DNA from: Gemmatimonadota bacterium | GTDB lineage: Bacteria > Gemmatimonadota > Gemmatimonadetes > Palauibacterales > KS3-K002 | Direction of reading: 5' to 3' | Assembly (NCBI GenBank): GCA_039586575.1 | Contig: JBDHKD010000002.1 | Coordinates: forward strand, 1,128-65,127 | Length of the DNA stretch: 64,000 bases | In this document: positions 5,496-59,798 of the stretch, one piece after another | How positions within the stretch are numbered: position 1 is the first letter of the stretch | Layout: each line of letters starts with the position of its first letter | Made by a program: the position numbers and the translations under genes | The notes under the pieces: generated by a model | Databases searched by the model: none | What the model saw: only the letters and a program-made list of their open reading frames with translations | Told to the model about the DNA's origin: nothing

Positions 5496-5747
5496 GTGGC
5501 CTGGACAGCTAGAGCCGGAATGCGCCAGTCGCTGGGGGTAGCGCTGCTGGCTGCCGGTAGCGCCGCTAAAGCGGAACGGGTCTACCGCGAAGACCTGGCC
5601 CGCTTCCCGGAGAACGGGTGGTCGCTGTTCGGGCTCCGCCGGTCCCTCCAGGCACAGGGCAAGTCGCAGGAAGCGAGGGAGGTTAAGGAGCCCTTTGAAC
5701 AGGCGTGGCAGCACGCCGACGTTACGCTCGTCGCCTCGCGGTTCTAG
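5496..5747 (+). CDS. Orphan 83-aa ORF resembling the C-terminal tail of a larger protein (possible gene remnant)
   Basis: No RBS; Ala/Arg-rich; reads like a C-terminal fragment (…RVYREDLARFPENGWSLFGLRRSLQAQGK…). Coding status is doubtful. Confidence 0.2.
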   Translation: MAWTARAGMRQSLGVALLAAGSAAKAERVYREDLARFPENGWSLFGLRRSLQAQGKSQEAREVKEPFEQAWQHADVTLVASRF

Positions 5748-5941: not shown

Positions 5942-6394
5942 ATGACGGACGAGGGCGTGGCCAAGACCGGGAAGGTGACGGTAACCTGCCAGTTCTGCCT
6001 GACGCTCAACCGCGTGGACCTGAGCCGGGCCGACCAGCGGCCCAAGTGTGGAGAGTGCGGGCGGCCGATTCTGCTAGACCGGCCGGTAAGAGTCAGCGAT
6101 GACGACTTCCAGCGTGTCTTGTCGGGTGCCGATGTGCCAGTGGTGGTCGACTTCTATGCCGACTGGTGCGCTCCCTGTAAGATCATGGCGCCGGTCCTCG
6201 ACGAGTTCGCCCACGCACACCGGGGCGAAGTGCTGGTCGCCAAGCTGGACACCGACCGCAGCCCGGCGACCGCCCAACGCTATGGTATCCGGGGCATCCC
6301 CACACTGATCGTCTTCAGGGGCGGGCAGGAGGTCGAGCGGCGAACGGGCGCGATCCCGCGCGAGGAGCTGGAACGACTGCTGGCTTCGGCCTGA
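5942..6394 (+). CDS. trxC: Thioredoxin, Trx2/TrxC type with N-terminal zinc-finger extension (150 aa)
   Basis: Two CxxC pairs in the N-terminal extension (CQFC…CGEC) followed by canonical thioredoxin fold and active site WCAPCK, plus GIRGIPTLIVF. Confidence 0.85.
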   Translation: MTDEGVAKTGKVTVTCQFCLTLNRVDLSRADQRPKCGECGRPILLDRPVRVSDDDFQRVLSGADVPVVVDFYADWCAPCKIMAPVLDEFAHAHRGEVLVAKLDTDRSPATAQRYGIRGIPTLIVFRGGQEVERRTGAIPREELERLLASA

Positions 6395-6462: not shown

Positions 6463-7010
6463 CTAGACGAAAAGCTCGTCGGCTGACCCGGTGCTGTAGT
6501 CGATGGCCCAGAAGCGATAGCCGAGACCCACCGATAGATTGCTCAACACGTTGTAGTAGATCGAGCCCTCTAAGCCCCACGCCAGATCGGAACCGATCCC
6601 CAGTCCGCCCAGATGACCGGCGGCTCTGAGCTGCCAGCGGCTGGAGATCGGCCAGCGGAACCGGCCGCCCAGCAGTGGGTCGAACCAACCGCGGCTCGAT
6701 TCGGCGAGTTCGTTCCCGGAGTCGGTGAGCTCGTAACTCAGGTTGTGAACATGGCCGCCGGCCATGACATCGATCTGCGAGGTGACTCGGTACCCCAGCA
6801 TGCCGACGCGGGCAAGCTTGTCGTATTCGAGTCGGGTGGTCCCCGAGTCCTCGCTGGCATCCATGTACAGCACGTCGAAGAGCAGCGTGCATCTCGCCGT
6901 CGACAGCCAGCGCCCACAGGTATGGCACCAGCTCGAACTCCACGCGATTCGATTCGTCGTTCTGGGCAGTAGCGGGCTGAGCGAAAACGACGGCGAGGGC
7001 GGCCGCCATA
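6463..7010 (-). pseudogene. Outer-membrane beta-barrel protein gene split by a frameshift near 6875-6900
   Basis: Signal peptide plus first beta-strands (…LVMAAALAVVFAQPATAQNDESNRVEFELVPYLWALAVDGEM…) lie in one reverse frame (ORF 6413..7090). The remaining beta-barrel body (MLYMDASEDSG…ADELFV) lies in another (ORF 6463..6873). Confidence 0.5.
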
Positions 7011-8438: not shown

Positions 8439-9386
8439 TTACTCCACGAGCTGGGACGGCAGCGGGGTCATCACCTCGACTGCGACCCGCCAGCTGCCGC
8501 TACCGTTGGGGCCACGACGCCAGGCCCGCACGTAAACGCCGAGTTCCGTCGGCGCGTCCGTGCCAGCCGGTGTGAACTCGTATTCACCGTACGTATAGCC
8601 CAGATCGCCGGAGCCCGACACGTCACCGCCCTGGACGGTCCACCGGTAGGCTCCCGGCCGTTCATCATAGAGCTCCTGCAAAGCTTCGATCCCGTTCAGC
8701 GGCTGCAGTCCGTTCCGCAGCGCGCGGACGTCGGAGGTGACATGCGCGGCGAGCGCCTGGACGGTGCCGGGCGTGGACGCGGCCCCGGCGAAGGCACGGT
8801 CCACTTCTAGCAGGGACCGTCGCTCGACCGTCAGGTCGAGTGCCCGTGCTCTCCAGCTTCGGTCGCGCTCGGGTGAGTGGAAATCCACCGCCGACTCGGG
8901 CGGCGGGTTGAAGATGCCGTGATCGATCACGGCCTTCCAATCTCCGTCCGGCTGCTTTTTCCACACGGTGAAATAGTTTCCATAGGCGGTGGCTTCACCA
9001 GTGGGATCCTCACGCCATTCCCAAGGGCCGGTTGTGTACCCCAGGTCGCCGGCCGCCGAGATGTCCGCGTACACCGGTTCCCAGGACAGCAGTCCGGGTA
9101 CCGCCGGCTGGGCCTGCAGGAACTGCTGCGCGTTGGTCGCACGTGGGCGAAACAGCACCGCGTCATCGGCCAGGTGGGTCCGAAACGCCTCGATGGTGCC
9201 GTGCTGCGCCGCCGAACGCGCGAAGTCTCGCTCCGCCTCCACCAGCGATCTCAGCACGGCCGGGCTGGCGTCGTCAGGCTCTTGGTCGTTCCCGGCGCAG
9301 GACGCCCCCGCCGCCACGCTGCTCGCCGCGACGAGGGCGATGCCGAGAAAGCGAGAATTGCAAAGATACTTGAACACGAGCACCAA
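8439..9386 (-). CDS. Tandem double NTF2-like (DUF4440-type) lipoprotein, 315 aa
   Basis: Signal/lipobox (…GIALVAASSVAAGASC) and two repeats of the same domain (…YFTVWKKQPDGDWKAVIDH… and …VYVRAWRRGPNGSGSWRVAVEV…). The start codon is non-ATG (TTG or GTG). Confidence 0.5.
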   Translation of the reverse strand: MVLVFKYLCNSRFLGIALVAASSVAAGASCAGNDQEPDDASPAVLRSLVEAERDFARSAAQHGTIEAFRTHLADDAVLFRPRATNAQQFLQAQPAVPGLLSWEPVYADISAAGDLGYTTGPWEWREDPTGEATAYGNYFTVWKKQPDGDWKAVIDHGIFNPPPESAVDFHSPERDRSWRARALDLTVERRSLLEVDRAFAGAASTPGTVQALAAHVTSDVRALRNGLQPLNGIEALQELYDERPGAYRWTVQGGDVSGSGDLGYTYGEYEFTPAGTDAPTELGVYVRAWRRGPNGSGSWRVAVEVMTPLPSQLVE

Positions 9387-9698: not shown

Positions 9699-10625
9699 AT
9701 GCCTACTCTTCCTCTCGTCTGGCACGAGGCCTACGAGGCCGACATCGGCGTTCACGTCTTCCCCACCCGTAAGTACCGCGCCGCCTATGACTTGCTGGTT
9801 CAGGCGGGAACGATCAGCCCGTCCGACATCCTGCGACCGGAGCCGGCCAGCGACGAGCAGGTGGCTCTGGTGCATACGGAGCAGTACCTGCGCAAGATCA
9901 GGGAGAGCGCCTTCTCCTGGCAGGACGTGATGATGTTGGAGGTGCCCTTCTCGCAGGAACTGCGCGAGGCGATGTGGCTATGCACGGGTGGTTCGATCCT
10001 GACGGGGCGGCTGGCCCTGGAGCACGGGCTGGCCGTCCACCTCGGCGGAGGCTTTCACCACGCTTTCCCCGATCACGGTGAAGGGTTCTGCCTGATCAAC
10101 GATGTGGCGATCGCGGTGCGCGTACTGCGAGCGGAGGGACGGATTGAACGGGCGGCCGTCGTCGATTGTGACCTGCACCACGGCAACGGCACCGCCGCGG
10201 TCTTCGCCGAGGAACCCGAGGTCTTCACCTTCTCGATGCACCAGGAACACAACTACCCGATGTGGAAGCCGCCCAGCGACCTGGACCTCGGGCTGCCCGA
10301 CCTCACCAGTGATGCCGAGTACCTGGCCCTGCTCGACAAACACCTGCCGCGGATTCTCGATGAGCACCGACCGGAGCTGGTCTTCTACCTGGCCGGCGCC
10401 GACCCGTACAAGGAGGACCAGCTGGGCGGTCTCGGCCTGACTCTGGAAGGGTTACGTCGCCGCGATGAGTTCGTGTTGCAGACGGCAGCCGCCGCCGGTG
10501 TGCCGCTCGCCGCTACGCTAGCTGGCGGCTATGCCCGCCGCTTCGAGGACACGGTCGAGATCCACTGCCAGACGGTGCGTGCTGCCCGGGTTCAGTTCGA
10601 GGCGCTGAAGAGTGGCCAGTGGTGA
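9699..10625 (+). CDS. Histone deacetylase family protein (HDAC/AcuC/arginase-deacetylase fold), 308 aa
   Basis: Hallmarks of class I/II HDAC-like amidohydrolases: start MPTLPLVWHEAY, GGGFHHA, DxDxHHGNG, and GGY near the C-terminus. Confidence 0.85.
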   Translation: MPTLPLVWHEAYEADIGVHVFPTRKYRAAYDLLVQAGTISPSDILRPEPASDEQVALVHTEQYLRKIRESAFSWQDVMMLEVPFSQELREAMWLCTGGSILTGRLALEHGLAVHLGGGFHHAFPDHGEGFCLINDVAIAVRVLRAEGRIERAAVVDCDLHHGNGTAAVFAEEPEVFTFSMHQEHNYPMWKPPSDLDLGLPDLTSDAEYLALLDKHLPRILDEHRPELVFYLAGADPYKEDQLGGLGLTLEGLRRRDEFVLQTAAAAGVPLAATLAGGYARRFEDTVEIHCQTVRAARVQFEALKSGQW

Positions 10626-11560: not shown

Positions 11561-12226
11561 ATGAGTTTCTGTGCGGAAAAACTCGCCCGGGTGCGTCCGG
11601 TTTGGGACCGGATCCTAAGTCACCGCTTTCTGGAGGAGACGCGGGACGGGACCGTCGCCCACGAGACTTTCGCGACGTGGATGCGGCAGGACTATCTGTT
11701 CGTCGAAGCGGCGATCCCGTTCATCGCGGCGCTCATGCCGAGAGCACCGCTGGAGCATCGGCAGGCGCTGGGCCAGGCGCTGCCGGTGCTCGAGACCGAG
11801 TTGGGTCTGTTCCGTGAGCGGGCGGGGAAGGCGGGCGTCGACCTGGAGAACGTCCGACCCTCCTTCGTCAACCATGCTTATGTTCAATTCCTGCTGGCGA
11901 GCGCGTACACGAAGTCATACGCGGGAGCTTTCACCGTGCTCTACGTGGCGGAGAAGGCTTACTACGACTCGTGGATGGTCGTCAGGCAGGGGATCGACGA
12001 AGGGTCGATCTGGTATCCGTTCGTCGAGAACTGGACCAGCGATGCGTTCAAGGCGTGGGTCGATTTCCTGCAGACGAACCTGGACTCACTAGCCGAGGAG
12101 GCGGGCCCGGCCGAGCGGTCCGAGATGGCCGAGCTGTTCGAGCTCACCGCCAAGTACGAGCTCGCCTTCTGGGAGATGGCGGCGACCGGCCAGGGCTGGC
12201 CCTGTATGGACGAGGAGGTGGCCTGA
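11561..12226 (+). CDS. TenA/THI-4/PqqC-family protein; the active-site-Cys region of copy 2 is not shared (221 aa)
   Basis: Heme-oxygenase-like TenA fold motifs (FATWMRQDYLFV…YVAEKAYYDSW…ELAFWEMA); no counterpart of the PCAWGY Cys motif of the downstream paralog. Confidence 0.75.
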   Translation: MSFCAEKLARVRPVWDRILSHRFLEETRDGTVAHETFATWMRQDYLFVEAAIPFIAALMPRAPLEHRQALGQALPVLETELGLFRERAGKAGVDLENVRPSFVNHAYVQFLLASAYTKSYAGAFTVLYVAEKAYYDSWMVVRQGIDEGSIWYPFVENWTSDAFKAWVDFLQTNLDSLAEEAGPAERSEMAELFELTAKYELAFWEMAATGQGWPCMDEEVA

Positions 12227-26816: not shown

Positions 26817-28364
26817 TTGCGACTCTGGGACATCGTGGAAACCTCGCGGCGTGTGGCTGAGACCAGCGCGCGCCGCGAGAAGATCGCCAACCTGGCGGCG
26901 CTGCTCGGAAGGTTGCGGCCTGACGAAGTCGGCGTCGCCGTCGCGTTCCTGGCCGGCGAGCCGCGTCAGGGCCGGCTGGGTATCGGTCCCGCGAAGCTCC
27001 AGGCCGCCCGGCCGGATTCCGCCTCTGCAGAGCCCCGGCTCGAGCTCATGGAGACCGACGCGGCGCTCGAGCGCATAGCCTCGCTATCCGGGTCGGGATC
27101 GACGGCGCAACGCGCCCGCTGGCTGCACGAACTGCTCACCCGCGCCACCCGCGAAGAGCAAGACTTTATCAACCGACTCGTACTCGGCGAGCTGCGTCAG
27201 GGTGCCCTCGAGGGTGTCATGGTCGAGGCGATCGCCAAGGCGGCTCGTGTCCCGGCAGCGCTTGTCCGCCGTGCCCTCATGTTCTCGGGCAACCTCCCCG
27301 AGGTGGCCGATGCCGCTCTGACCGGCGGCGCGGAAGAGCTGGCCGGGTTCTCCATCCAGCTCTTCCGCCCTGTGCAGCCGATGCTGGCGGCGACCGCCGA
27401 AGACGTCGGTGAAGCATTCGGCCGCCTGGAGACCGCCGGCCTCGAGTACAAGCTGGATGGCGCGCGAGTTCAGGTGCACCGCGCCGGCGACGAAATACGC
27501 GTCTACACGCGCCGGCTGAACGATGTCACCGCGGCGGCGCCCGAGTTGGTGGAAGCCGTTCGCGCGCTACCGGTGAACGAGATCATCCTCGATGGCGAGA
27601 CGCTGGCATTGCGCTCCGACGGAAAGCCCCAGCCGTTCCAGGTGACGATGAGCCGCTTCGGGCGCAAGCTGGACGTTGAGCGGATGCGCCGCGAGCTGCC
27701 CTTGTCCGCCTACTACTTCGATCTTCTCTATCTGGATGGCCAGAGCCTGGCCGACCGTCCGGCGGGCGAGCGGCTCGAATCACTGAGAGAACTACTGCCG
27801 GAAACGCTGTCAGTCAGACGCACAATTACCGGAGATCCGGCTGAGGCGCAGAGATTTCTGCGCGCCGCGCTCGCCGCCGGGCACGAAGGCATCATGGCCA
27901 AAGCGCTGGATGCGCCCTACGAGGCCGGTCGGCGCGGTCAGAGTTGGCTCAAGGTGAAGCCCGCTCACACCCTCGATCTGGTCGTGCTGGCGGCGGAGTG
28001 GGGCTCGGGTCGGCGGCGCGGCTGGCTGAGCAACCTGCACCTTGGAGCCCGCGACCCGAAGACCGGCGGCTTCGTCATGCTCGGCAAGACCTTCAAAGGA
28101 TTGCGAGACCGAGATCTCGAGTGGCAGACTAAGCGTCTGCAGGAGCTAGAGATTAGCCGGGACGCCTACACGGTCTATGTACGCCCTGAGGTTGTCGTAG
28201 AGATCGCGTTCAATGAGGTGCAGGGAAGCCCGAGGTATCCGGCGGGGCTGGCCCTCCGCTTCGCGCGGGTCAAACGTTATCGACCCGACAAGCGTCCCGA
28301 AGACGCCGACACCATTGACACCGTGAGAGCGATCTATGCGGCTCAGAATGGAGAGCTTGGGTAG
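26817..28364 (+). CDS. ATP-dependent DNA ligase (LigB/Lig I-like: DNA-binding, adenylation and OB domains), 515 aa
   Basis: Motif I KLDGARVQV (active-site Lys), motif III/IV and V, C-terminal OB-fold; N-terminal DNA-binding domain present. Confidence 0.9.
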   Translation: MRLWDIVETSRRVAETSARREKIANLAALLGRLRPDEVGVAVAFLAGEPRQGRLGIGPAKLQAARPDSASAEPRLELMETDAALERIASLSGSGSTAQRARWLHELLTRATREEQDFINRLVLGELRQGALEGVMVEAIAKAARVPAALVRRALMFSGNLPEVADAALTGGAEELAGFSIQLFRPVQPMLAATAEDVGEAFGRLETAGLEYKLDGARVQVHRAGDEIRVYTRRLNDVTAAAPELVEAVRALPVNEIILDGETLALRSDGKPQPFQVTMSRFGRKLDVERMRRELPLSAYYFDLLYLDGQSLADRPAGERLESLRELLPETLSVRRTITGDPAEAQRFLRAALAAGHEGIMAKALDAPYEAGRRGQSWLKVKPAHTLDLVVLAAEWGSGRRRGWLSNLHLGARDPKTGGFVMLGKTFKGLRDRDLEWQTKRLQELEISRDAYTVYVRPEVVVEIAFNEVQGSPRYPAGLALRFARVKRYRPDKRPEDADTIDTVRAIYAAQNGELG

Positions 28365-28394
28365 GAGCCGACCCCGGCAACACGAGGCCGTCAA

Positions 28395-29186
28395 ATGACT
28401 CTGCAAGCGTTGATCGTCGCAGCGGCCCTCCTGCTCGTTCTCGTCGCAGCGGTTGTCGTCTTCATCGGCTGGGCGGTACGCTGGGGCGCGACCCCTGAGG
28501 AGTGCTCGATGCGCATGCCAGGCGACGGATACTTCACGGGTGTTTCCCCGGCGTACGTGGCGATGACCCGCGCCATATCTATTGCGGCCCCAACCGAGAC
28601 CGTCTGGCCGTGGTTGGCTCAGCTGGGCCGTGGCGCCGGCTGGTACAGCATCGACCGCTTGGACAACGGCGGCAAAATGTCGGCGCGACACATCCTCTCC
28701 TGGGTCCCGCCGCCTCGCGAAGGCGATGCGACGCCCATCGGATATTTGCGTCATATTATGCCCGGGCGCGAGCTCACCTGGTGGTTGCCCGGCACGCGCT
28801 CTCTCGGCAGCACGGCGCGCTTGGCCGTCGACATCCGCCTGAGTCCCGAGAACGACGGGTCGCGCCTGGTGATCCGGATGTCCGGAGATGCCGCGGGGGG
28901 CATGCCGCGCATGGTGATCTGGGTCTTCAGGTTCATCGACAGCATCATGGCCATCCGCCAGCTCCTCGGCATCAAGGAGCGCGTCGAGCAGCACGCGGCG
29001 CGCACCTCCGATCCCGAGCACCCGGAGAGCGGGTCGCGCGACCAGTACCAGCTCTACGAAGTGGTTTATGCTTCGGGCGAAAGGGCGGGGACCCCGGGAA
29101 AGGAGCACGCCGAGCAGTGGCATCGCGCGGCTGTGACAGCCGGGCTTGTAACCGTCGACGGCGAGGAGAGGAACAACAAGGGCTGA
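28395..29186 (+). CDS. SRPBCC (START/Bet v1-like) family protein with N-terminal membrane anchor (263 aa)
   Basis: N-terminal TM helix (ALIVAAALLLVLVAAVVVFIGWAV) followed by a helix-grip-like domain; family call from pattern memory only. Confidence 0.45.
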   Translation: MTLQALIVAAALLLVLVAAVVVFIGWAVRWGATPEECSMRMPGDGYFTGVSPAYVAMTRAISIAAPTETVWPWLAQLGRGAGWYSIDRLDNGGKMSARHILSWVPPPREGDATPIGYLRHIMPGRELTWWLPGTRSLGSTARLAVDIRLSPENDGSRLVIRMSGDAAGGMPRMVIWVFRFIDSIMAIRQLLGIKERVEQHAARTSDPEHPESGSRDQYQLYEVVYASGERAGTPGKEHAEQWHRAAVTAGLVTVDGEERNNKG

Positions 29187-29199
29187 TCAGCCCGAGTGA

Positions 29200-29520
29200 C
29201 GTGGGGGGCTTTTATGGTGTCACGGGCACCGCTACCCTTTGAAGACGTTCAAAGGGCTGACGGACCAAACGCTCGAATGGCAAACGGGGAAGCTTCAGGA
29301 GCTGGAGACCGGCCGCGATCGATACACCGTTTATCTGCGCCCCGAGCTTGTAGTGGAAATCGCCTTCAATGATATTCAGGCCAGCCCCAAGTATCCGGGC
29401 GGCTTGGCGCTGCGCTTTGCCCGGCTCAAGCGCTAGCGGCCGGACAGGCGCCCCGAACATGCCGACACTATCGAGACGGTTCGGGCGATTCACGAGGGTC
29501 GGCGCGGCCACAGCTGAGGC
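29200..29520 (+). pseudogene. Displaced, diverged 3' fragment of an ATP-dependent DNA ligase gene (OB-domain C-terminus) with internal TAG stop
   Basis: The fragment translates to …[85 protein letters not shown]. This is about 75% identical to residues about 425-508 of the intact ligase ([84 protein letters not shown]). Confidence 0.75.
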
Positions 29521-29541
29521 CGACCTCGCATTCTCAGCCGA

Positions 29542-30648
29542 ATGACGACGCTCTTCCCCACGGTCTACGCCGAGAAGAACCGCTCCACGTTCTTCGACGT
29601 GGCGGGAACCCTCATCACGGTCAGCTATGATCTGATCGAACGGAAGCGCTGGTTCTTGTTTCCCAGCCCGGCGCTGGCTCGCGTCCTGATCAATATCGGC
29701 GACGGTGAGTCGCTGATGTCCCACGAATACTCGGTGCCCAGGAACCGCCGGGTCGGTCCGGAGATCGCCGGCGTCGAACGAGGCCTGTACAGGCTCCTGG
29801 ATGATGCCGTCTGCACGACGATGCAGATCAAAGCACTCGAGGCCGCGGAAAGGGAAGTGCAGGCCCTGGAAGCCGAGCACCTGTTCGAAGGTGGAAGTGG
29901 AAGTGGCTCCCGCGAGCAGCCCGCCGACGCCGCAGCTGCGCGACGGGCGTGGGAGCAGAGACTGCTGGAAGAGTTGATCGACCGATTGATTACGGCGTTG
30001 CGCCACGTCACCAACGTGACATCACTCACCCCCGAGGGGCTCGAAGCCCATCAACGCGACCGTTCCCAGGCGCTGGAGCGCGTCGTTCAATCGACGACTC
30101 TCGCCTCGGTCCTCGAGGCGCAGGGCGTGCTGAGTGCGGTGGAGACGTTTCTGGCCCACGAGGTCGAGACGACGACCGATGTGAATGTGCTCAGGGATAG
30201 GACGCTGGACTATCTGGAGCGGCTGCACGAGAGGAGCGGTCGCGGGGCACCGGCGCTCAGTTACCCGCAAGCGCACATTATCACCAACGAGTTCGTGCCT
30301 GCCTTCGTGGAGATGAAGAAGGAATACGATGCGGCCAGCTCTGTCCCTTCCAACATCGTCGAGCATGCCTTCGGCAGCTTCTTCGGTGGAGGCATAGCCG
30401 GTTGGCTGACGCTCTCGCTATTCGGGGAAGCCGTGATCAGAGGCCTGACCGGGATGTATGTGGATATACCCGGTTGGTATATCGGCGCCGCGGTGGCTTT
30501 CGTTTGGCCTTACCTCAAGGCGAGCCTCGGGATGACCAGGCGCGAAAGGCAATACGAGAAGCGACGTCAGAAGCTCTTGCGGAGACTCGGCAAGCGGCTC
30601 GAGCTCGTCTGGCCGGAAAGCGGCTCGCGGTCTGTGCCCCCCTCCTAG
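29542..30648 (+). CDS. Hypothetical protein: N-terminal globular region, central coiled coil, C-terminal Gly-rich two-TM hairpin (368 aa)
   Basis: Clean ORF with no similarity I can recall; C-terminus FGSFFGGGIAGWLTLSLFGEAVIRGLTGMYVDIPGWYIGAAVAFVWPYL predicts two TM helices; ends with a basic tail. Confidence 0.5.
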   Translation: MTTLFPTVYAEKNRSTFFDVAGTLITVSYDLIERKRWFLFPSPALARVLINIGDGESLMSHEYSVPRNRRVGPEIAGVERGLYRLLDDAVCTTMQIKALEAAEREVQALEAEHLFEGGSGSGSREQPADAAAARRAWEQRLLEELIDRLITALRHVTNVTSLTPEGLEAHQRDRSQALERVVQSTTLASVLEAQGVLSAVETFLAHEVETTTDVNVLRDRTLDYLERLHERSGRGAPALSYPQAHIITNEFVPAFVEMKKEYDAASSVPSNIVEHAFGSFFGGGIAGWLTLSLFGEAVIRGLTGMYVDIPGWYIGAAVAFVWPYLKASLGMTRRERQYEKRRQKLLRRLGKRLELVWPESGSRSVPPS

Positions 30649-30938
30649 GGCATCACGGCGCGCGAGCGGATGTAGGCCTCGAGCTCGCGCGCCGGCCTGA
30701 ACCACTCGCCACGCACATGGGCATCCTTGAACGTGTTGTGCAGCTCGCGCACGAGAGCCTTCGAGTTCCGCGCCCCGATCACCCCGAGTAGCTTCAATTC
30801 GGCTGGGTTGCCGGACTGCAGCTCTTGCAGCTGTGTCTCGAGCCGCCGCCTGCGGGCGATGCCGATCTTGATCTCGCCGCCGCGCATGTCGCGAACGAAG
30901 TAGGCGTATCTCATCAGATCATAATACCTCTGGAACAA
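30645..30938 (-). CDS. T5orf172/MUG113 (GIY-YIG superfamily) domain protein, 97 aa
   Basis: Pattern …GEIKIGIARRRRLETQLQELQSGNPAELKLLGVIGARNSKALVRELHNTFKDAHVRGEWFR matches the phage T5 Orf172 domain signature (KIGit.…R...LQtGNP..L.L…..LE..LH..F…GEWF); 4-nt convergent overlap with the preceding gene. Confidence 0.65.
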   Translation of the reverse strand: MFQRYYDLMRYAYFVRDMRGGEIKIGIARRRRLETQLQELQSGNPAELKLLGVIGARNSKALVRELHNTFKDAHVRGEWFRPARELEAYIRSRAVMP

Positions 30939-42100: not shown

Positions 42101-42712
42101 CTAACGCGCCGCGTCGAACCGCTTCGCCACCTCGTCCCAGTTGACCGTGTCGAACCAGGCCTCGATATAATCGGGTCGCCGGTTCTGATACTTCAAGTAG
42201 TAGGCGTGCTCCCATACATCGATCCCGAGGATCGGCCTACGCCCCTCGGTGAGTGGGCTGTCCTGGTTCGGGGTGCTTTCGACGACCAGCTTCCCCTTCG
42301 GGTCCACCGAGAGCCACCCCCAGCCGCTGCCGAAGCGCGTCGCCGCCACATCACCTAGCTGCTGCTTGAAACTCGCGAAGTCGCCGAACGCCGCGGCTAT
42401 CGCGCCGGCCAGCTCGCCCGTCGGCTCGCCGCCGCCACCCGGGCCCATAATCGACCAGAAGAGCGTGTGGTTCGCGTGACCACCACCGTTGTTGCGGACC
42501 GCGGTCCGGATGTCCTCCGGCACCTCACTCAACTGTGCCAACAGCTTCTCGACCGGCCAATCGGCCAGCCCCGCGTGCTTCTCTAGCGCCCCATTCAGCT
42601 TGGCGACGTAGCCCGCATGGTGCTTGCCGTGGTGGATCCGCATCGTCTGCTCGTCGATATGCGGCTCGAGCGCCTTGTAGTCGTAAGGGAGCGGGGGAAG
42701 TTCGTGAGCCAT
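42101..42712 (-). CDS. Fe/Mn superoxide dismutase, 203 aa
   Basis: ATG at 42712 preceded by GGAGGAAAA RBS; metal ligands and signature (HHGKHH…[18 protein letters not shown]). The 421-aa ORF in the track is an N-terminal over-extension. Confidence 0.9.
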
Positions 42713-43016
42713 TTTTCCTCCTATCACGGGTGGGGCACCTTTCGGATAACACGAGAAAGATACTGCGAAAGAGGGGTGGTTCAACGTGGCGATTGCAGCG
42801 CGCCTTCCGCGGCCTTGCGAAATGCGACTGTTTTCGGTATATGTTCGGGTCACCGTACTACAGGGGGACGCAGGCGATTTCGGAGTCTGGTCGCGCTGGC
42901 CGCCCTTGTCCTGGCCTTGGGGGCGGGCGGCTGCGGTCGCGGTGAGCAAGCGGTCGACGAAGCGGTAGTACTGTCGGCCGATCCCATCGTCATCTCCAAA
43001 CCAAACGAGGGCACGA

Positions 43017-43378
43017 TGTTTGTTGGTCTGAGAACCGTCGTCTACCAGGTCGACGATCTGGAGAAGGCGAAGGAATGGTACGGCCGGGTCTTGGGATTCG
43101 AGCCGTACTTCGACGAGCCGTTCTACGTCGGGTTCAACGTGGCTGGGTTCGAGCTGGGGCTGCATCCGGCCGAGAAAGACGCGCCCCTCGGAGCCGGGGG
43201 TACGCTCGCGTATTGGGGAGTCGAAGATATCGTAGCGGTGATGGCCAGGTTGGAAGAGCTGGGCGCCCCGGTGCACAGCGAGATTCAGGATGTCGGCGAA
43301 GGGATCTTGGTGGCCTCGGTGATCGATCCGTTCGGCAACCTGGTGGGGATCATCCAGAACCCGCATTTCGGGAACTAG
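43017..43378 (+). CDS. VOC (glyoxalase I / bleomycin-resistance) family protein, 120 aa
   Basis: ATG at 43017 with GAGGG RBS; VOC beta-alpha-beta-beta-beta pattern (…[23 protein letters not shown]…[31 protein letters not shown]). Confidence 0.6.
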
Positions 43379-56904: not shown

Positions 56905-58242
56905 ATGACCCGCCCACGGACGATCCGACAAATATCGCGAACCCGGGTGCGGGACGATAGATCTGGGATCGCTCTGCTGACGGTTCTGTTGGCCATGGCG
57001 CTGCTTACCGTGATCGGCGCCGCGCTCGCCGCCATCGGCATCGTCGAGTATCGCAAGTCCCTCAACCATCGCTCCGCGACCCGCGCGCTGCTGCTCGCCG
57101 ATGCCGGTGCCAGCCACGTGCTGGGGCTGATGCGCGGGCCACTGAGCCACTTCACCTACAGTGACGTTATCAGGGGGGACGACCGGGCTCCGAACACGCA
57201 GGATGACGGTGTGCTGGCGGGCTTCGGGCTCGACGCGTTCGATGAGCTGCCCGACACCGGAGTCGTGCTGGGCCTGGGCCGCTACTTCGTTAGGCTGGAG
57301 AACGACGCCGCTGACCCCAGCGGCGACCCATCTACCGACTCCAATCACAGGGTCGTCGCGATCTGTCGCGGCGAGCTGCCCGACGGCGGTGTCGCGGAGG
57401 TCCGCGCGATACTCGCCGCGCCGAGCTTCCCGGCCATCGTCAGCAACGGAGACCTCACGTTGCCCGGCAACCCGGAAGTGCTAGGACCGTGCGCAGGCGT
57501 TCACGCCAACGGCGACCTGAGGGTCAGCGGGCATCCGACCGTGGATGGAGAGGCGACGGCGTCCGGCGAGTTGATCTTGAGCGGCACGATCTACGACGCG
57601 AACGGCAACATCGTGGTTCCGCGCTACCAGCAGCAGATGGAGGTCCCCCAATACAGCTTGCAGAGCTTCTGCGCAGACGCCGACTACGAGCTCCTCGATG
57701 GCTATGTGGTCGCCGCGGGTCCGCCACGCCAGAGCACCCTGGCCACCGGCAACGGACACCTGGGCTGGAAGTGGAACGCGAGCCAGGGTACGTGGAGCCT
57801 ATCGGGTAGCGAGGCGGTTTCCGGCACTTACTGTGTGCACGGCAACGTATCGGTGACCGGCAACATCGGGAGTGACGGTGCGCCGCTGCAGATCTCGATC
57901 CTGGCCAGCGGGTCGGTCCAGGTGGCGGGGAACCCGAAGATCGAGGCCGACCACCCCGACGGCGTCCTGATCCTGGCCGAAGGCGACGTGCAGATCGCTG
58001 GCAACGCCTCGGGGATGACGCTCTCCTACGCCGGCCTGGTCTACGCCGGCAGCCAGTGCGAGGTCAACGGCACACCCAGCGTTGGGGGGCATGTCATGTG
58101 CTACGACGATCCCGACCCGCTGGGCGCCACCAATCTCGTTAGCGAGAACAAGATCAACGGGACTCCCGAAGTCACCTACGACTGTACGGGCGAACGGCGC
58201 CGCACCCTGATGGCGACGTGGTGGGAGTCACGAGCACGATAG
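56905..58242 (+). CDS. PilX_N-domain minor pilin paralog (tandem duplicate of the preceding gene), 445 aa
   Basis: …DRSG|IALLTVLLAMALLTVIGAAL; about 60% identical and co-linear with the previous protein, including all 7 Cys and the shared C-terminal CxGERRRTLxAxWWESR. Confidence 0.6.
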   Translation: MTRPRTIRQISRTRVRDDRSGIALLTVLLAMALLTVIGAALAAIGIVEYRKSLNHRSATRALLLADAGASHVLGLMRGPLSHFTYSDVIRGDDRAPNTQDDGVLAGFGLDAFDELPDTGVVLGLGRYFVRLENDAADPSGDPSTDSNHRVVAICRGELPDGGVAEVRAILAAPSFPAIVSNGDLTLPGNPEVLGPCAGVHANGDLRVSGHPTVDGEATASGELILSGTIYDANGNIVVPRYQQQMEVPQYSLQSFCADADYELLDGYVVAAGPPRQSTLATGNGHLGWKWNASQGTWSLSGSEAVSGTYCVHGNVSVTGNIGSDGAPLQISILASGSVQVAGNPKIEADHPDGVLILAEGDVQIAGNASGMTLSYAGLVYAGSQCEVNGTPSVGGHVMCYDDPDPLGATNLVSENKINGTPEVTYDCTGERRRTLMATWWESRAR

Positions 58243-58340
58243 ACCCGCCAAGTTCTGGAGTCAGACGTCAACCCAACAGACGGCGAGCGCCGGACCGGCG
58301 CTCGCCGTCGCGCATCTTGCAGGCCATTTGCCAACGGAAG

Positions 58341-59798
58341 TCAGGACCGCAGCATCTCCGACCAGCGAAGTGTCGGACCTATCAGAACGGGAATACTCTC
58401 GCTCCGAGCCTGGTACATGGCAGTGTCGGCTTCGATGACCAGGCGCTCGACGATTCTCGGGAAGTCGGGAAAACCCAAATCCATCGGTGAGACGTCGTCC
58501 GCCTCCAAGGTGACGAGGCCGATCGTCGTCTTGATCGGCGGTATCCCCTTCGGCCACGAGCGGGCCTGCTCGCCGGCCAGCGCCGATCGGATGCGATTCG
58601 CGACTACCCCGCCTCCCTCGGGGTTGGCATCGATGAGAACGATTAGGAACTCATCCCCACCGAAGCGGCCTACGACATCCGAATCCCGCACGCAGCGCTT
58701 GAGCAGGCTGCCCATGTGCCTGAGCGCGCGGTCACCGACAACGTGCCCGTGCTCGTCGTTCAGATTCTTGAACTTGTCGATGTCGAGCATCGCCACCGTG
58801 ACGGGAAACGCCTTGCGCCAGGCCAACTTGAGCGACTCGCGCAGGCGTTCCATCGTGAATTGCTTCTGGTAGACCCGCGTTGTCGTGTCGACGGTGGCCA
58901 GTTCGTACAGTGCGGCATTACGGATCGCCGCAGCGGCCTGGCTGGCGAAGACCTGAAGAAGATCGATGTCACGCTCGCCGATGCCCGGCTTGTTGAGATA
59001 GGCCAGTCCCAGGACGTGGTCTGCCAGCGTGAGTGGCAATACACCGTGATCGTCGTCGATGATGTTGCTGCGCTCTTCGACTGCCCGCCGCATCAGCTGG
59101 TCGGGGACCGCTCTGAGTTTGTTGATCGAGGCGCCGCGCGGGTAAGAATCGCTGCTGGCCGCGGCGACCACGTAGTCATCGACGCTCTGCGGAGAGTATA
59201 TGAAGCCTTCGATGCTCGGCTTGCCGACCGGGTCGCTCAGCCGCGCGGCGACAAACGCGCTCTCGCCGCCCATCAGCCGGCTGACCTCGTCCAGGATCGT
59301 CTCCGTAACATCCTCGAGCGACTGGATCTGGTGTAGTTGGGGTACTGCTTCCAGGACCCGCCTTAACCCTTGGCGTGAGCGCCGGATCATGTCCAGCTGC
59401 TGCGCCGCCTGCAGGGCGGCGTTCACCCAGAGCCGCAGGCCCTGCTCACCGTGACCTTTGTCGTGATAACCATAGGCCTTGTGCTCGCGGGTTACCCGGC
59501 TAAAACGTCCTCCCGGAGCGCCGTTGCCCATGAGCACGATGGGTGCTCCCGGAGCCAGCTCCCGCAAGTCGGCCAGCGGGTCGGCGCCGTCGATCTCCAG
59601 CAACGCCAGCTCGACCAGTAGCGCGTCGGGCAGATGGTCGGCCAGAAAGCTCGCGGCAGCGATGAGGTCCTCGACTCCCCAAACGCAATGGCCCTCCTCG
59701 GCGATGTGGCCGCAGCTTCGACTGAGGAAGTCAGGGTCGCTGTCGATGAGCAGAACGCTGAGTCCCTGCTTCGCGCGATTGCGACGCAGAAGGGTCAT
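58341..59798 (-). CDS. Receiver-like (REC) - GAF - GGDEF protein (response-regulator-type diguanylate cyclase), 485 aa
   Basis: N-terminal REC-like fold (VLLIDSDPDF…ALLVELALLEIDG), central GAF, C-terminal GGDEF with intact RFGGDEF and upstream I-site-like RxxD. Confidence 0.8.
   Translation of the reverse strand: MTLLRRNRAKQGLSVLLIDSDPDFLSRSCGHIAEEGHCVWGVEDLIAAASFLADHLPDALLVELALLEIDGADPLADLRELAPGAPIVLMGNGAPGGRFSRVTREHKAYGYHDKGHGEQGLRLWVNAALQAAQQLDMIRRSRQGLRRVLEAVPQLHQIQSLEDVTETILDEVSRLMGGESAFVAARLSDPVGKPSIEGFIYSPQSVDDYVVAAASSDSYPRGASINKLRAVPDQLMRRAVEERSNIIDDDHGVLPLTLADHVLGLAYLNKPGIGERDIDLLQVFASQAAAAIRNAALYELATVDTTTRVYQKQFTMERLRESLKLAWRKAFPVTVAMLDIDKFKNLNDEHGHVVGDRALRHMGSLLKRCVRDSDVVGRFGGDEFLIVLIDANPEGGGVVANRIRSALAGEQARSWPKGIPPIKTTIGLVTLEADDVSPMDLGFPDFPRIVERLVIEADTAMYQARSESIPVLIGPTLRWSEMLRS

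Follow-up and report, generated by a model that had tools for sequence, protein, structure and literature searches.

How does the 3' end of a DNA ligase gene come to stand twice in a bacterial genome, once as part of an intact gene and once as a fragment further downstream, and which of the two copies belongs to the gene by descent? The question is raised by a stretch of 64,000 nt from contig JBDHKD010000002.1 of a Gemmatimonadota bacterium (hereafter the window), whose ligase locus comprises, from left to right:

26817-28364, plus strand: ATP-dependent DNA ligase, intact, 515 aa (Pfam PF04675, PF01068, PF04679)
26817-28085, plus strand: ligN, the native 5' part of the ligase, codons 1-423 (Pfam and NCBIfam matches)
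28086-28364, plus strand: tail_B, the replacement ligase tail, codons 424-515 and the stop, read here as foreign and now the functional 3' end
28295-29200, plus strand: block of recent common ancestry with loci L081 and L082, from nucleotide identity and dS
28395-29186, plus strand: SRPBCC/START-like cargo gene, 263 aa, with an N-terminal membrane anchor (weak match to Pfam PF10604)
29187-29241, plus strand: right end of the insert, 55 nt ending in CCCTTTG, with no match elsewhere
29235-29256, strandless: perfect inverted repeat across the junction, CCCTTTGAA-gacg-TTCAAAGGG
29242-29517, plus strand: tail_A, the displaced native ligase tail, a pseudogene fragment and second copy of ligase codons 424-515
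29518-29541, plus strand: 24-nt leader from the old ligase stop to the ATG of the next gene, with a similar leader in L092
29542-30648, plus strand: gene of a 368-aa membrane protein, 73-76% identical in amino acids in L001, L081, L087, L092, L095 and L096
30645-30938, minus strand: T5orf172/MUG113 (GIY-YIG-like) gene, 97 aa, convergent with the 368-aa gene (Pfam PF13455, PF10544)

The 515-aa ligase matches NCBIfam NF002868 with 755 bits for a cut-off of 641, and ligN covers the N-terminal DNA-binding domain, the adenylation domain and the start of the OB domain. Tail_A opens with the K of KTFKGL and remains in frame up to its own TGA (29515-29517). It aligns with the resident tail without gaps (BLASTP, 64/90 residues identical, E 9e-45), with 75% amino acid and 72% nucleotide identity over the first 80 codons, and matches PF04679 by itself (E 1.4e-10, profile positions 25-94 of 94). 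The second ligase tail noticed in the preliminary description is therefore significant in a formal alignment, and the codon alignment also recovers the protein identity of about 75%, the many synonymous differences and the in-frame TAG that it had listed. The indel it had placed at the 5' edge is absent: the alignment contains no gap, and the homology ends at AAGAC (29242). Overall, the two copies are about 70% identical, their longest exact match is 8 nt, and their differences are distributed 13/11/44 over the three codon positions, so that the divergence is overwhelmingly synonymous.

Tail_A bears both marks of a pseudogene, being a truncated homologue of the ligase (no ligase N-terminal sequence lies upstream, and the first 24 positions of PF04679 are missing) that carries disabling mutations. 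The TAG at 29434-29436 occupies a codon that is TAT (Tyr) in the ligase, and is one of the three differences (V->L, Y->stop, K->R) that separate tail_A from a 98%-identical sequence, P0163, all three at residues conserved in functional ligases. Most of its divergence is, judging by a dN/dS of 0.09 in comparison with L001, older than its inactivation. No promoter, terminator or Rfam feature was found in the fragment.

Which of the two tails is native? Between them pS is 0.72-0.74 and dS about 2.4-2.9 (saturated), with a dN/dS of 0.07 and no indel, and the two window copies are sisters in 0.4% of neighbour-joining bootstraps, while tail_A joins L001 and the displaced tail of L096 in 55-70%. Measured from L001, whose tail is functional, dS is equal for tail_A (1.28), ligN (1.32) and the 368-aa gene (1.30), and the C-terminus of tail_A, RAIHEGRRGHS, matches RAIHEGRLGHG of L001. 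The window ligN is 75-77% identical in amino acids to those of L001, L081, L092 and L096, with a dS of 1.0-1.4 that equals that of the 368-aa gene. Tail_B, for its part, has a dS of at least 2 from every other tail compared, and its nearest relatives are weak ones (the first tail of L095, 77% nucleotide identity; L002, 84% amino acid identity). Its GC3 is 0.67 versus 0.80 in ligN, with a break at codon 424. In the chimeric ligases, the resident tail lies 0.10-0.15 below its own ligN in GC3 and the displaced tails keep a native-like GC3; in L001-L005, whose ligases are not chimeric, GC3 does not fall in this way. These comparisons identify tail_A as the native tail and tail_B, now attached to the ligase, as foreign, and the resident ligase accordingly reads, at the level of its sequence, as a chimera, its 5' part inherited vertically and its 3' end acquired laterally. 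The earlier proposal of a stranded original 3' end, replaced in the gene by a foreign one, is in this respect upheld by the dN/dS at saturated dS, the grouping with L001 and L096 and the GC3 break. The original 3' end now lies 1,156 bp further downstream.

An element that supplies a new tail puts the insert between the two copies, and the inserted block is therefore 28086-29241, that is, the foreign tail followed by the SRPBCC gene. The match of the SRPBCC-like protein to Polyketide_cyc2 (PF10604) is weak (E 0.006), and SRPBCC is the name of some members of its family, for which 1098 homologues were collected. Copies 76-81% identical in amino acids occur in unrelated contexts without a ligase tail (L083, L088, L089, L090), and there is no SRPBCC gene between the ligase and the 368-aa gene in L001, L087, L092 and L096. 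The block 28295-29200, which consists of the last 65 nt or so of the ligase, the spacer, the SRPBCC gene and about 15 nt beyond, is about 92% identical in nucleotides to L081 and 87-89% to L082, the flanks being about 72% identical. Correspondingly, dS in the L081/L082 comparison is 0.20-0.26 for the SRPBCC gene (0.20 with L081) and 1.25-1.36 for ligN and the 368-aa gene. L001 has no SRPBCC gene, yet is nearer to L081 (dS 0.5-0.7) than the window is. These distances indicate that the SRPBCC gene moved horizontally. A donor with a native ligase-SRPBCC adjacency was found neither among the best 80 ligase loci of the scan nor among seven SRPBCC contexts (L083-L086, L088-L090), and blastn-short detected no other copy of 29187-29241 in the window or among 90 loci.

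The genes to the right of tail_A have another history. In L001 and L087, the closest relatives, which have functional tails that group with tail_A and no insert, the start of the 368-aa gene follows the ligase stop by one base; the 24-nt leader is missing there and in L096, where stop and start likewise read TGAAATG. The 368-aa gene is always directly 3' of the (displaced) native tail in L001, L081, L087, L092, L095 and L096, promoter and terminator predictions gave nothing between ligase and 368-aa gene, and this gene is probably the ancestral downstream neighbour and operon partner of the ligase. Its family has 42 members, and those few for which a source is named belong to Gemmatimonadota or Gemmatimonadales; a metagenome scan with the 368-aa alignment, run with search patterns that were too degenerate, returned one locus (L087). 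All loci that contain the 368-aa gene and extend past it also contain the T5orf172 gene, which in L004 stands directly after the ligase. For a defence role of either gene, PADLOC gave marginal matches only, none better than E 8e-4. The preliminary description had taken these two genes for the cargo, a role that synteny in L001, L087, L092 and L096 contradicts for this event. Of the genes that it had proposed to look for in related genomes, SRPBCC is missing from these same four loci, and those at 29542-30938 are present in relatives.

Is the event unique to the window? Four further loci carry a displaced tail together with cargo:

L096: cargo, TolB-like propeller; native tail displaced and intact
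L081: cargo, SRPBCC; displaced tail present as two remnants
L082: cargo, SRPBCC and S41 peptidase; displaced tail reduced to an end of about 45 nt
L095: three tails in series, with an aspartic protease and a kinase between; displaced tail a decayed remnant

In L095, the 10 kb upstream of the 368-aa gene contain no intact ligase; the window has a single orphan tail. Outside the window, tail_A is full in P0163 and L096, partial in L091, and present as remnants in L081, L082 and L095, all of them independent assemblies; P0163 is an ORF of the junction type (L-KTFKG...) without the stop, and L096 has an ORF of the same type. Across these assemblies, displacement is a recurrent event at the ligase locus, with variable cargo. 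The same fragment thus occurs in the same place in relatives, as expected of an old pseudogene, but the cargo varies, and L001 and L087 are free of the insert, so that the locus is explained neither by one recent integration peculiar to the window nor by one old and inert pseudogene. L001 and L087, without insert, are yet nested among carriers; these uninterrupted alleles may simply be ancestral.

A search with a profile of the ligase tail gave, among its best 120 matches, short ORFs exclusively, of which 61 start at the internal Met of VMLGKTFKG, and one short ligase-tail ORF checked on a long contig (L097) proved to be a frameshifted ligase in a long-read MAG. With such internal-Met starts and such a frameshift, a widespread class of orphan ligase tails cannot be claimed.

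The breakpoints can be placed closely in several loci. The switch from L001-like to foreign sequence falls at the window equivalent of 28082-28094 in L081 and of 28064-28088 in L096, hence within 12-25 nt and at the same site, and the right join of the window is non-homologous. Breakpoints lie on conserved blocks (GKTFKG, RPELVVE, DADTID), which is what homeologous crossover predicts. Other boundaries are also used: the first tail of L095 starts 6-8 nt upstream, L092 and the third tail of L095 have their break at RPELVVE, and L036 at LRFAR. In L081, a left crossover at about 28300-28310 is combined with a right join in which SRPBCC plus 15 nt abuts codon 33 of the displaced tail with 1-2 nt of microhomology; the import of SRPBCC into L081 has, as read from these two ends, the form of homology-facilitated illegitimate recombination (HFIR). 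The displaced tails themselves look selected: between tail_A of the window and that of L096 dN/dS is 0.075, and dN between L001 and the L096 copy is 0.054, where about 0.25 would be expected had the tail been neutral since the L081/L096 split. In the L096 copy, one conserved aromatic position has changed from Y to C.

The reading that we favour, with moderate confidence, is a recurrent 3'-end ("C-terminal") displacement by recombination anchored in the ligase, as at Rhs and T6SS effector loci. DNA acquired horizontally from another Gemmatimonadota lineage, carrying a ligase tail that begins at codon 424 and includes the stop, a 30-nt spacer, the SRPBCC gene and 55 nt, would have recombined into the ligase at the conserved block coding for GKTFKG. 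The incoming tail would have been joined in frame to the resident 5' part, so that the ligase stayed intact, and the old tail would have lost both its 5' part and its function, and would now be decaying (TAG, substitutions at conserved residues). Homology-driven recombination is favoured, without a dedicated recombinase, and two routes could have been followed in the window. In the first, a small circular intermediate bearing tail and cargo would integrate by a single crossover, as in the Rhs model of Jackson et al.; in such a circle, ...ACCGCTACCCTTTG would be joined to AAGACCTTCAAAGGATTGCG of tail_B. In the second, HFIR, one crossover in the ligase would be combined with one illegitimate join. 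At about 70% identity and with a longest exact match of 8 nt, only short conserved blocks would be open to RecA-type crossover, which would be very rare. Once formed, the slot between the tails has ligase homology on both sides, and ordinary recombination between lineages could swap cargo and tails, remove the insert, or refresh the displaced tail from uninterrupted alleles. Such refreshing is conjectural, but the selected appearance of the displaced tails means that the model must invoke either recent events or repeated refreshing.

Could a site-specific mechanism have been at work instead? The right-hand junction gives reasons to ask. CCTTTG, left of the boundary, pairs with the tail's own CAAAGG in an inverted repeat that can be described as a perfect 9-4-9 (or 7-8-7), similar to a tyrosine-recombinase core; in the 64 kb, about nine sites, the junction repeat among them, have perfect arms of 9 nt or more separated by 10 nt or less. 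CCTTTG immediately before AAGAC is common to the window and L096, despite different cargo and different foreign tails, and an exact search of 97 loci for the 20-mer CCTTTGAAGACSTTCAARGG found it only in these two. For two loci at a dS of about 1, such a shared junction would have a chance of about 4^-6 under independent illegitimate events, so that the junction must either be inherited from a common ancestor or be due to a site-specific mechanism. The inserts could accordingly be non-autonomous cassettes, each made of a ligase tail, one or two genes and a conserved right end, with a core site in the GKTFKG codons (proposed attP CCTTTG-AAGACSTT-CAAAGG, proposed attB CTCGGC-AAGACSTT-CAARGG), integrated and excised by a recombinase encoded elsewhere. 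We consider this possible, though rather unlikely. The coincident left breakpoints of L081 and L096, the patchy distribution of the insert, with L001 and L087 nested among carriers, and the low dN/dS of the displaced tails fit with it, as frequent excision would keep both tails under selection. Set against these are the other boundaries seen in L092, L036 and the first and third tails of L095, the small number of independent junctions (two only), and insert ends that, upstream of the junction in the window and L096, are not significantly similar beyond the 6-7 shared nt. No recombinase, transposase or phage gene was found by Pfam in the 1.16-kb insert or in 40 of the about 62 window ORFs, including the tyrosine or serine recombinase that the preliminary description had suggested looking for, and no recombinase is present among the called genes of L081, L082, L095 and L096. 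A tRNA scan returned 0 genes, and neither the ligase tail nor the junction motif was found in viral contigs (IMG/VR).

In a more speculative version, to which we give little credence, the GKTFKG codons would be a dedicated insertion slot that single-gene cassettes, each with its own ligase tail, enter and leave by way of a trans-acting recombinase that recognises CCTTTG-AAGACSTT-CAAAGG or of a recombinase-free cycle of circle formation and crossover. Gain and loss would be frequent enough for both tails to alternate as the working end and to remain under purifying selection. If true, a repair gene would conceal a cassette system that in concept stands between integrons and the exchange of Rhs tips.

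The apparent selection on displaced tails has also been considered as a sign that they work as ORFs, either as a 92-aa OB-fold fragment or as a leader that starts at the TTG created by the junction and is coupled to the 368-aa gene, the feature being old and selected and the TAG a recent loss. Intact 92-aa L-KTFKG ORFs in P0163 and L096, the low dN/dS between the two displaced copies, the TGAAATG stop-start overlap kept in L096 and a TTG start that falls in the conserved CCTTTG would all agree with this. We nevertheless hold it to be very improbable: such an OB fold would be short of the first 24 Pfam model positions, nothing like a Shine-Dalgarno sequence can be seen upstream, the TAG and the V->L and K->R changes have destroyed the tail in the window, as deletions have in L081, L082 and L095, the L096 copy has lost its conserved aromatic residue, and the window, L081 and L092 have kept the 368-aa gene although they do not have the overlap.

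It is harder still to believe in an element integrated into the ligase 3' end with its cargo to the right, as first proposed. The region from the ligase to PEBP/DinB does vary across Gemmatimonadota (L002-L005), the 368-aa gene is limited to one clade, T5orf172 is a phage-associated domain, and an older event of this sort may have taken place before the clade diversified. A tail supplied by the element, however, puts cargo between the copies and not beyond the stranded one; the 368-aa and T5orf172 genes have diverged as ligN has (dS 1.0-1.3) and are present in L001 and L087 without a second tail, and the scanned and mapped relatives have no additional copy of the tail to the right of these two genes. 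Finally, an in-situ tandem duplication followed by divergence, or an assembly artefact, can be dismissed almost entirely, even though the copies are direct repeats in the same orientation and the source is probably a metagenome-assembled genome: duplication is ruled out by the saturated dS with its dN/dS of 0.07, the phylogeny and GC3, and an artefact is unlikely because the same junction-type ORF recurs in independent data (P0163, L096), with tail_A full, partial or as a remnant in further assemblies.

The favoured reading, displacement by recombination, has precedents. The displacement of Rhs C-termini via a circular intermediate was modelled by Jackson et al. 2009 (PMC2935791), HFIR was proposed as the putative mechanism of T6SS effector displacement by Kirchberger et al. 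2017 (PMC5361080), and HFIR during natural transformation or conjugation is summarised in PMC3240628 and PMC5361080. As at Rhs, CdiA and T6SS effector loci, the conserved 5' part of the ligase gene gains a 3' end by lateral transfer, and the former end, which opens with a conserved stretch, is left further downstream as an orphan with unchanged orientation (in the window, L096, L081, L082 and L095). Repeated events would build a series of orphans, as may be the case for the three tails of L095. No dedicated recombinase is known for displacement at those loci either, the routes being circle crossover or HFIR (PMC2935791, PMC5361080). The ligase tails differ from Rhs in that their identity of about 70% is far below the level that Jackson et al. 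thought necessary (PMC2935791). They also differ in kind: the gene is a DNA-repair ligase and not a polymorphic toxin, there is no immunity gene, the exchanged ends are orthologous OB-domain ends and not toxin tips, and the passengers are SRPBCC, an S41 peptidase, a TolB-like propeller and an aspartic protease. Since the exchanged tails are orthologous and equivalent in function, they offer no target to diversifying selection on the tip.

Integrative elements in the 3' ends of genes may carry a replacement 3' end, as in tRNA/tmRNA islands and ICESt1/CIME in fda, and CIME-like remnants can be without recombinase genes and accrete in tandem. The ligase insert resembles them in supplying a new tail and leaving the old one as a direct repeat at the far end; unlike them, it yielded no integrase in any of its versions, its breakpoints are not all at one site, and the duplication is 276 nt long and 70% identical instead of a short identical att core. 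HFIR accounts for foreign genes beside a conserved gene without mobile-element genes, and one homologous anchor (the ligase) with one illegitimate join is the configuration readable in L081. HFIR usually deletes or replaces recipient DNA; at the ligase, in contrast, the join lies upstream of the anchor end, so that recipient sequence was duplicated and not lost, and the CCTTTG junction shared by two lineages is unlike random illegitimate joins. Integron cassettes offer another parallel, with promoterless single-gene inserts at one position, older material pushed downstream and a palindrome at the end. Unlike integrons, the locus has no attI or attC consensus and no IntI integrase in the insert or among the 40 window ORFs scanned, insertion took place inside a coding sequence, and the gene tail is duplicated. 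The attC core consensus is GTTRRRY, and by eye the junction palindrome does not match this consensus.

What does the locus mean beyond the window? In annotation, genuine displaced tails may be met among short "DNA ligase C-terminal" ORFs, although most such ORFs in databases begin at an internal Met, which is how split or partial calls of a gene would begin. Should the shared junction prove site-specific, it would represent a new kind of cassette system. More generally, the locus offers a clean and datable footprint of accessory genes that arrived next to a conserved gene of a bacterial chromosome, no mobile-element genes being involved. Since the old end of the gene survives, what came from the donor can be told from what belonged to the recipient, nucleotide by nucleotide. 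It would extend 3'-end displacement, so far described mainly at polymorphic-toxin loci, to an ordinary DNA-repair gene of uncultured Gemmatimonadota, where it recurs at one locus.

The window, from a Gemmatimonadota chromosome, carries an intact ATP-dependent DNA ligase (755 bits against NCBIfam NF002868, cut-off 641), whose best matches are all Gemmatimonadota MAGs, followed at a distance by a second ligase 3' end:

26817-28364: intact ATP-dependent DNA ligase, 515 aa (PF04675, PF01068, PF04679; NCBIfam NF002868); resident tail (tail_B) at 28086-28364
28395-29186: SRPBCC-like gene, 263 aa, between ligase and fragment
29242-29517: ligase-tail fragment (tail_A), with its own TGA at 29515-29517 and a TAG at 29434-29436
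29542-30648, plus strand: 368-aa membrane protein gene
30645-30938, minus strand: T5orf172 gene

This second 3' end with an in-frame TAG, noticed in the preliminary description, is confirmed by a gap-free alignment to the resident tail (64/90 residues identical, BLASTP E 9e-45) and by the match of the fragment alone to PF04679 (E 1.4e-10, covering positions 25-94 of the 94-position profile). Its first codon, at 29242, is the AAG that opens KTFKGL, the paralogous ligase position being 28086; it stays in frame for 91 codons, with 0 indels, up to the TGA, the TAG (TAT in the ligase) being its single interruption; the indel described at its 5' edge is absent, homology just stopping at 29242. Differences between the two tails fall 13/11/44 at codon positions 1/2/3, with pS 0.72, dS ~2.4 (2.9 by global alignment) and dN/dS 0.07. 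Since neutrality after a duplication would push this last ratio towards 0.5, each tail evolved in a lineage of its own, while part of a working gene.

The native tail can be recognized by comparison with L001 and L087, the closest genome loci, whose ligase codons 1-423 (ligN, 26817-28085 in the window) are 75% identical to those of the window at the amino acid level. In both, a ceramidase-like gene, a kinase gene (minus strand), the ligase, the 368-aa gene and T5orf172 (minus strand) follow one another, the stretch from the stop of the ligase to the start ATG of the 368-aa gene reading TGAAATG, with SRPBCC absent. The fragment is 79% identical to the L001 tail (amino acids) and the resident tail 71%, and the fragment ends in RAIHEGRRGHS and stop, L001 in RAIHEGRLGHG and stop. 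Window and L001 are separated by a dS of 1.28 for the fragment, 1.32 for ligN and 1.30 for the 368-aa gene, whereas the resident tail stands at a dS of at least 2 from every other tail compared; the fragment clusters with the L001 tail and L096_A (the displaced tail of the relative L096) in 55-70% of bootstraps. Composition provides evidence independent of similarity: in the non-chimeric ligases L001-L005, tail GC3 is about equal to that of their own ligN, while the resident tails drop below theirs in the window (0.67 vs 0.80), L096 (0.66 vs 0.82), L081 (0.64 vs 0.76) and L092 (0.70 vs 0.81), and displaced tails are native-like (window 0.75, L096 0.79). Taken together, L001-like sequence, matching dS, bootstraps and GC3 indicate that the original gene consisted of 26817-28085 joined to 29242-29517, and 28086-29241 (tail_B, a spacer, SRPBCC and 55 nt) is hence the foreign block. 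The proposal of a stranded original 3' end and an imported replacement is thereby upheld.

This is not the case for the proposed cargo: the 368-aa gene and T5orf172 adjoin the ligase or tail_A in L001, L087, L081, L092, L095 and L096, and their divergence from relatives is that of ligN. The true passenger of the window insert is the SRPBCC gene, with a dS of 0.20 between window and L081 (92% nt identity) and 0.26 between window and L082, against flanks at 1.25-1.36; the high-identity block around it spans ~28295 to ~29200. L001 lacks SRPBCC, yet is nearer L081 (dS 0.5-0.7) than the window is. SRPBCC homologues (76-81% aa identical) occur in unrelated contexts without a ligase tail, and in overall GC the insert does not stand out. 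The SRPBCC stop lies at the centre of a perfect 14-nt palindrome, GGGCTGATCAGCCC (29180-29193), which is absent from L081 and L082. The 368-aa protein has no Pfam or NCBIfam match and belongs to a family of 42 proteins, the few with a source name being from Gemmatimonadota or Gemmatimonadales; its TGAAATG overlap with the ligase stop, seen in the simplest arrangement, suggests a ligase-linked function. Every inspected locus that reaches past the 368-aa gene (L082 ends inside it) has a T5orf172/MUG113 (GIY-YIG-like) gene of 89-97 aa next, in convergent orientation, and in L004 the T5orf172 gene alone comes after the ligase.

The states of the locus in relatives are as follows:

L001, L087: no insert between ligase and 368-aa gene, TGAAATG stop/start
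L092, L093: ligase and 368-aa gene 260 nt apart, a 56-aa ORF lying in the interval
Window, L091 and the contig of P0163 (a protein entry 98% identical to the fragment): tail_B, SRPBCC, full tail_A
L096: a different foreign tail, followed by a TolB-like propeller gene (minus strand) and by tail_A as an intact ORF of 92 aa
L081: L096-type tail with window-like end, SRPBCC, two tail_A remnants
L082: SRPBCC, S41 peptidase, ~45 nt of tail_A
L095 (CP070815.1, 1959132-1980226): tails at 6653-6916, 8762-8995 and 9912-9997, all plus strand

L091 is of the same species as the window and its contig starts within the fragment; tail_A of P0163 is free of the stop codon. The ligase tail of L092 and L093 is A-type up to window-equivalent ~28165-28196 and of a third type beyond, and the foreign tail of L096 is L004-like and common to L081 at a dS of 0.42. 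The tails of L095 are set apart by a Ser/Thr kinase gene and an aspartic-protease gene pair, and the 10 kb upstream of the 368-aa gene hold neither an intact ligase nor the N-terminal part of one; the first tail, which is whole from LGKTFKG onwards, resembles the window resident tail most closely (77% nt). Remnants of tail_A decay lineage by lineage, with differing deletions and substitution numbers, so that the displacement events differ in age, and the ligase 3' locus has been hit repeatedly, with different cargo in relatives. The expected contrast with related loci thus holds for the insert, absent from L001 and L087, and for the variable cargo, but not for the fragment, as the same tail_A is also displaced in L096, L081, L082 and L095.

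Two further cases were encountered. In L036 (Thermoanaerobaculia, DASUNJ010000570), the terminal 99 nt of the ligase gene (5508-5606) are repeated at 5945-6043 (87% identical), these direct repeats flanking a 338-nt insert with a 72-aa Lys/Ala-rich ORF, with tandem repeats and ParE-like toxin-antitoxin genes coming next; this is an analogous ligase-tail duplication in another phylum, at another position in the gene. In L092 (1-372; 537-2111, minus strand; 2376-2441), an outer-membrane beta-barrel-like gene that precedes the ligase in the window sits across the kinase gene, a 22-aa C-terminal remnant persisting at the original place, apparently the displaced-3'-end pattern in a second gene.

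Informative sites place the switch from L001-like to L004-like sequence in L081 between window-equivalent 28082 and 28094, and dense mismatches to L001 start between 28064 and 28088 in L096; both coincide with the start point of the window's displaced tail. A second cluster is the conserved RPELVVE block, where four independent breakpoints or truncations (L081 remnant, third L095 tail, L092 A-to-C switch, L091 contig start) lie within a few nt (window-equivalent 29337-29346). For the SRPBCC import in L081, the left crossover lies in a third block, DADTID (~28300-28310), and the right join sets SRPBCC plus 15 nt against tail_A codon 33 with a microhomology of 1-2 nt, an outcome of the type of homology-facilitated illegitimate recombination (HFIR). 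Positions 1-17 of L091 (GCA_041551735.1, JBFEMH010000021.1) correspond to window 29202-29218 (2 mismatches) joined to 29337 (fragment codon ~32); these 17 nt at a contig end imply a ~118-nt deletion variant without the junction, which could reflect either strain variation or faulty assembly. Two preserved right junctions were available, in the window (...CGCTACCCTTTG / AAGACGTTCAAAGGG) and L096 (...GGCCGCCTTTG / AAGACCTTCAAGGGG), which have the boundary and CCTTTG in common, the tail to the right being lineage-specific from the first base; upstream of CCTTTG, the two insert ends have no significant similarity. A perfect 9-4-9 inverted repeat lies at the window junction (29235-29256), one of ~9 such repeats in 64 kb; apart from these two junctions, the 20-mer has no further occurrence in the window, the 97 loci or IMG/VR.

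The best-supported reading, and one that we consider reasonably probable, takes the locus as a product of 3'-end ("C-terminal") displacement, through recombination for which the ligase gene served as anchor. In the Rhs model of Jackson et al. (PMC2935791), a circle of core piece, new tip and intervening genes enters by one homologous crossover, and the old tip is shunted downstream, none being deleted; an HFIR-like mechanism was proposed by Kirchberger et al. (PMC5361080) for serial T6SS effector displacement. Both routes are recombinase-free and predict crossovers at conserved blocks, and either yields the anatomy of the window locus. DNA with ligase tail and cargo would enter the ligase either as a circle by a single crossover or by an HFIR-like join, shunting the old tail downstream; the slot would then be flanked by ligase homology on both sides, where ordinary recombination could swap the cargo, remove the insert, or renew the displaced tail from alleles that carry no insert. 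Homology-driven displacement fits less well with the ~70% identity of the window tail copies (longest exact match 8 nt), with an identical CCTTTG junction in two lineages, window and L096, at dS ~1, and with the low dN/dS of displaced tails (0.075 for window vs L096_A; dN of 0.054 for L001 vs L096_A, ~0.25 being expected under neutrality since the L081/L096 split). These three features would find a more natural explanation in a site-specific cassette whose recombinase acts in trans; this mechanism is nevertheless unlikely, as only two junctions are available, competing boundaries exist within the same locus, and the suggested search for a recombinase found none, nor any transposase or tRNA, in the insert or in the 40 of ~62 window ORFs scanned.

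That the displaced tail is still a functional ORF is very improbable, the fragment in the window combining the TAG with three changes at conserved residues and a missing start of the OB-domain model (its first 24 positions); it has no visible ribosome-binding site and is a relic. The TAG also occurs in the second assembly, L091, and the fragment differs from the intact P0163 at exactly three residues (V to L in TVYVRPE, Y to stop in KRYRPDK, K to R in RPDK), all conserved in functional ligases. A decayed local duplicate is ruled out by the dN/dS of 0.07 and by the two window tails being sisters in 0.4% of NJ bootstrap replicates. No promoter, terminator or Rfam family was found within the fragment, and ligase, SRPBCC, fragment and 368-aa gene probably form one transcription unit. 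Short "ligase C-terminal" ORFs seem abundant in databases, 61 of the 120 best matches listed beginning at an internal Met; the single case checked (L097) is a frameshifted ligase, and this apparent abundance is probably due to genes called in part or in pieces, not to a general phenomenon.

Elsewhere in the window, a TPP riboswitch (RF00059, 11410-11506, plus strand; 58.9 bits vs a gathering score of 54.3) precedes a TenA/THI-4 family gene (11561-12226). A 27-nt perfect palindrome with 13-nt arms (58281-58307) lies between the convergent genes 56905-58242 (plus) and 58341-59798 (minus), and is probably a bidirectional terminator. The Fe/Mn superoxide dismutase at 42101-43366 (minus strand) has its domains at residues 221-416, after a 220-aa N-terminal extension without family match.

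This kind of event is already known; what is new is that it affects a gene of an unusual class in an uncultured phylum, where the comparative states of the locus form an unusually informative series. For genome-evolution specialists, the case is neat, not astonishing, though two loose ends could raise it above a known type of event: the palindromic junction that two lineages share, and the selection that displaced tails seem to be under.
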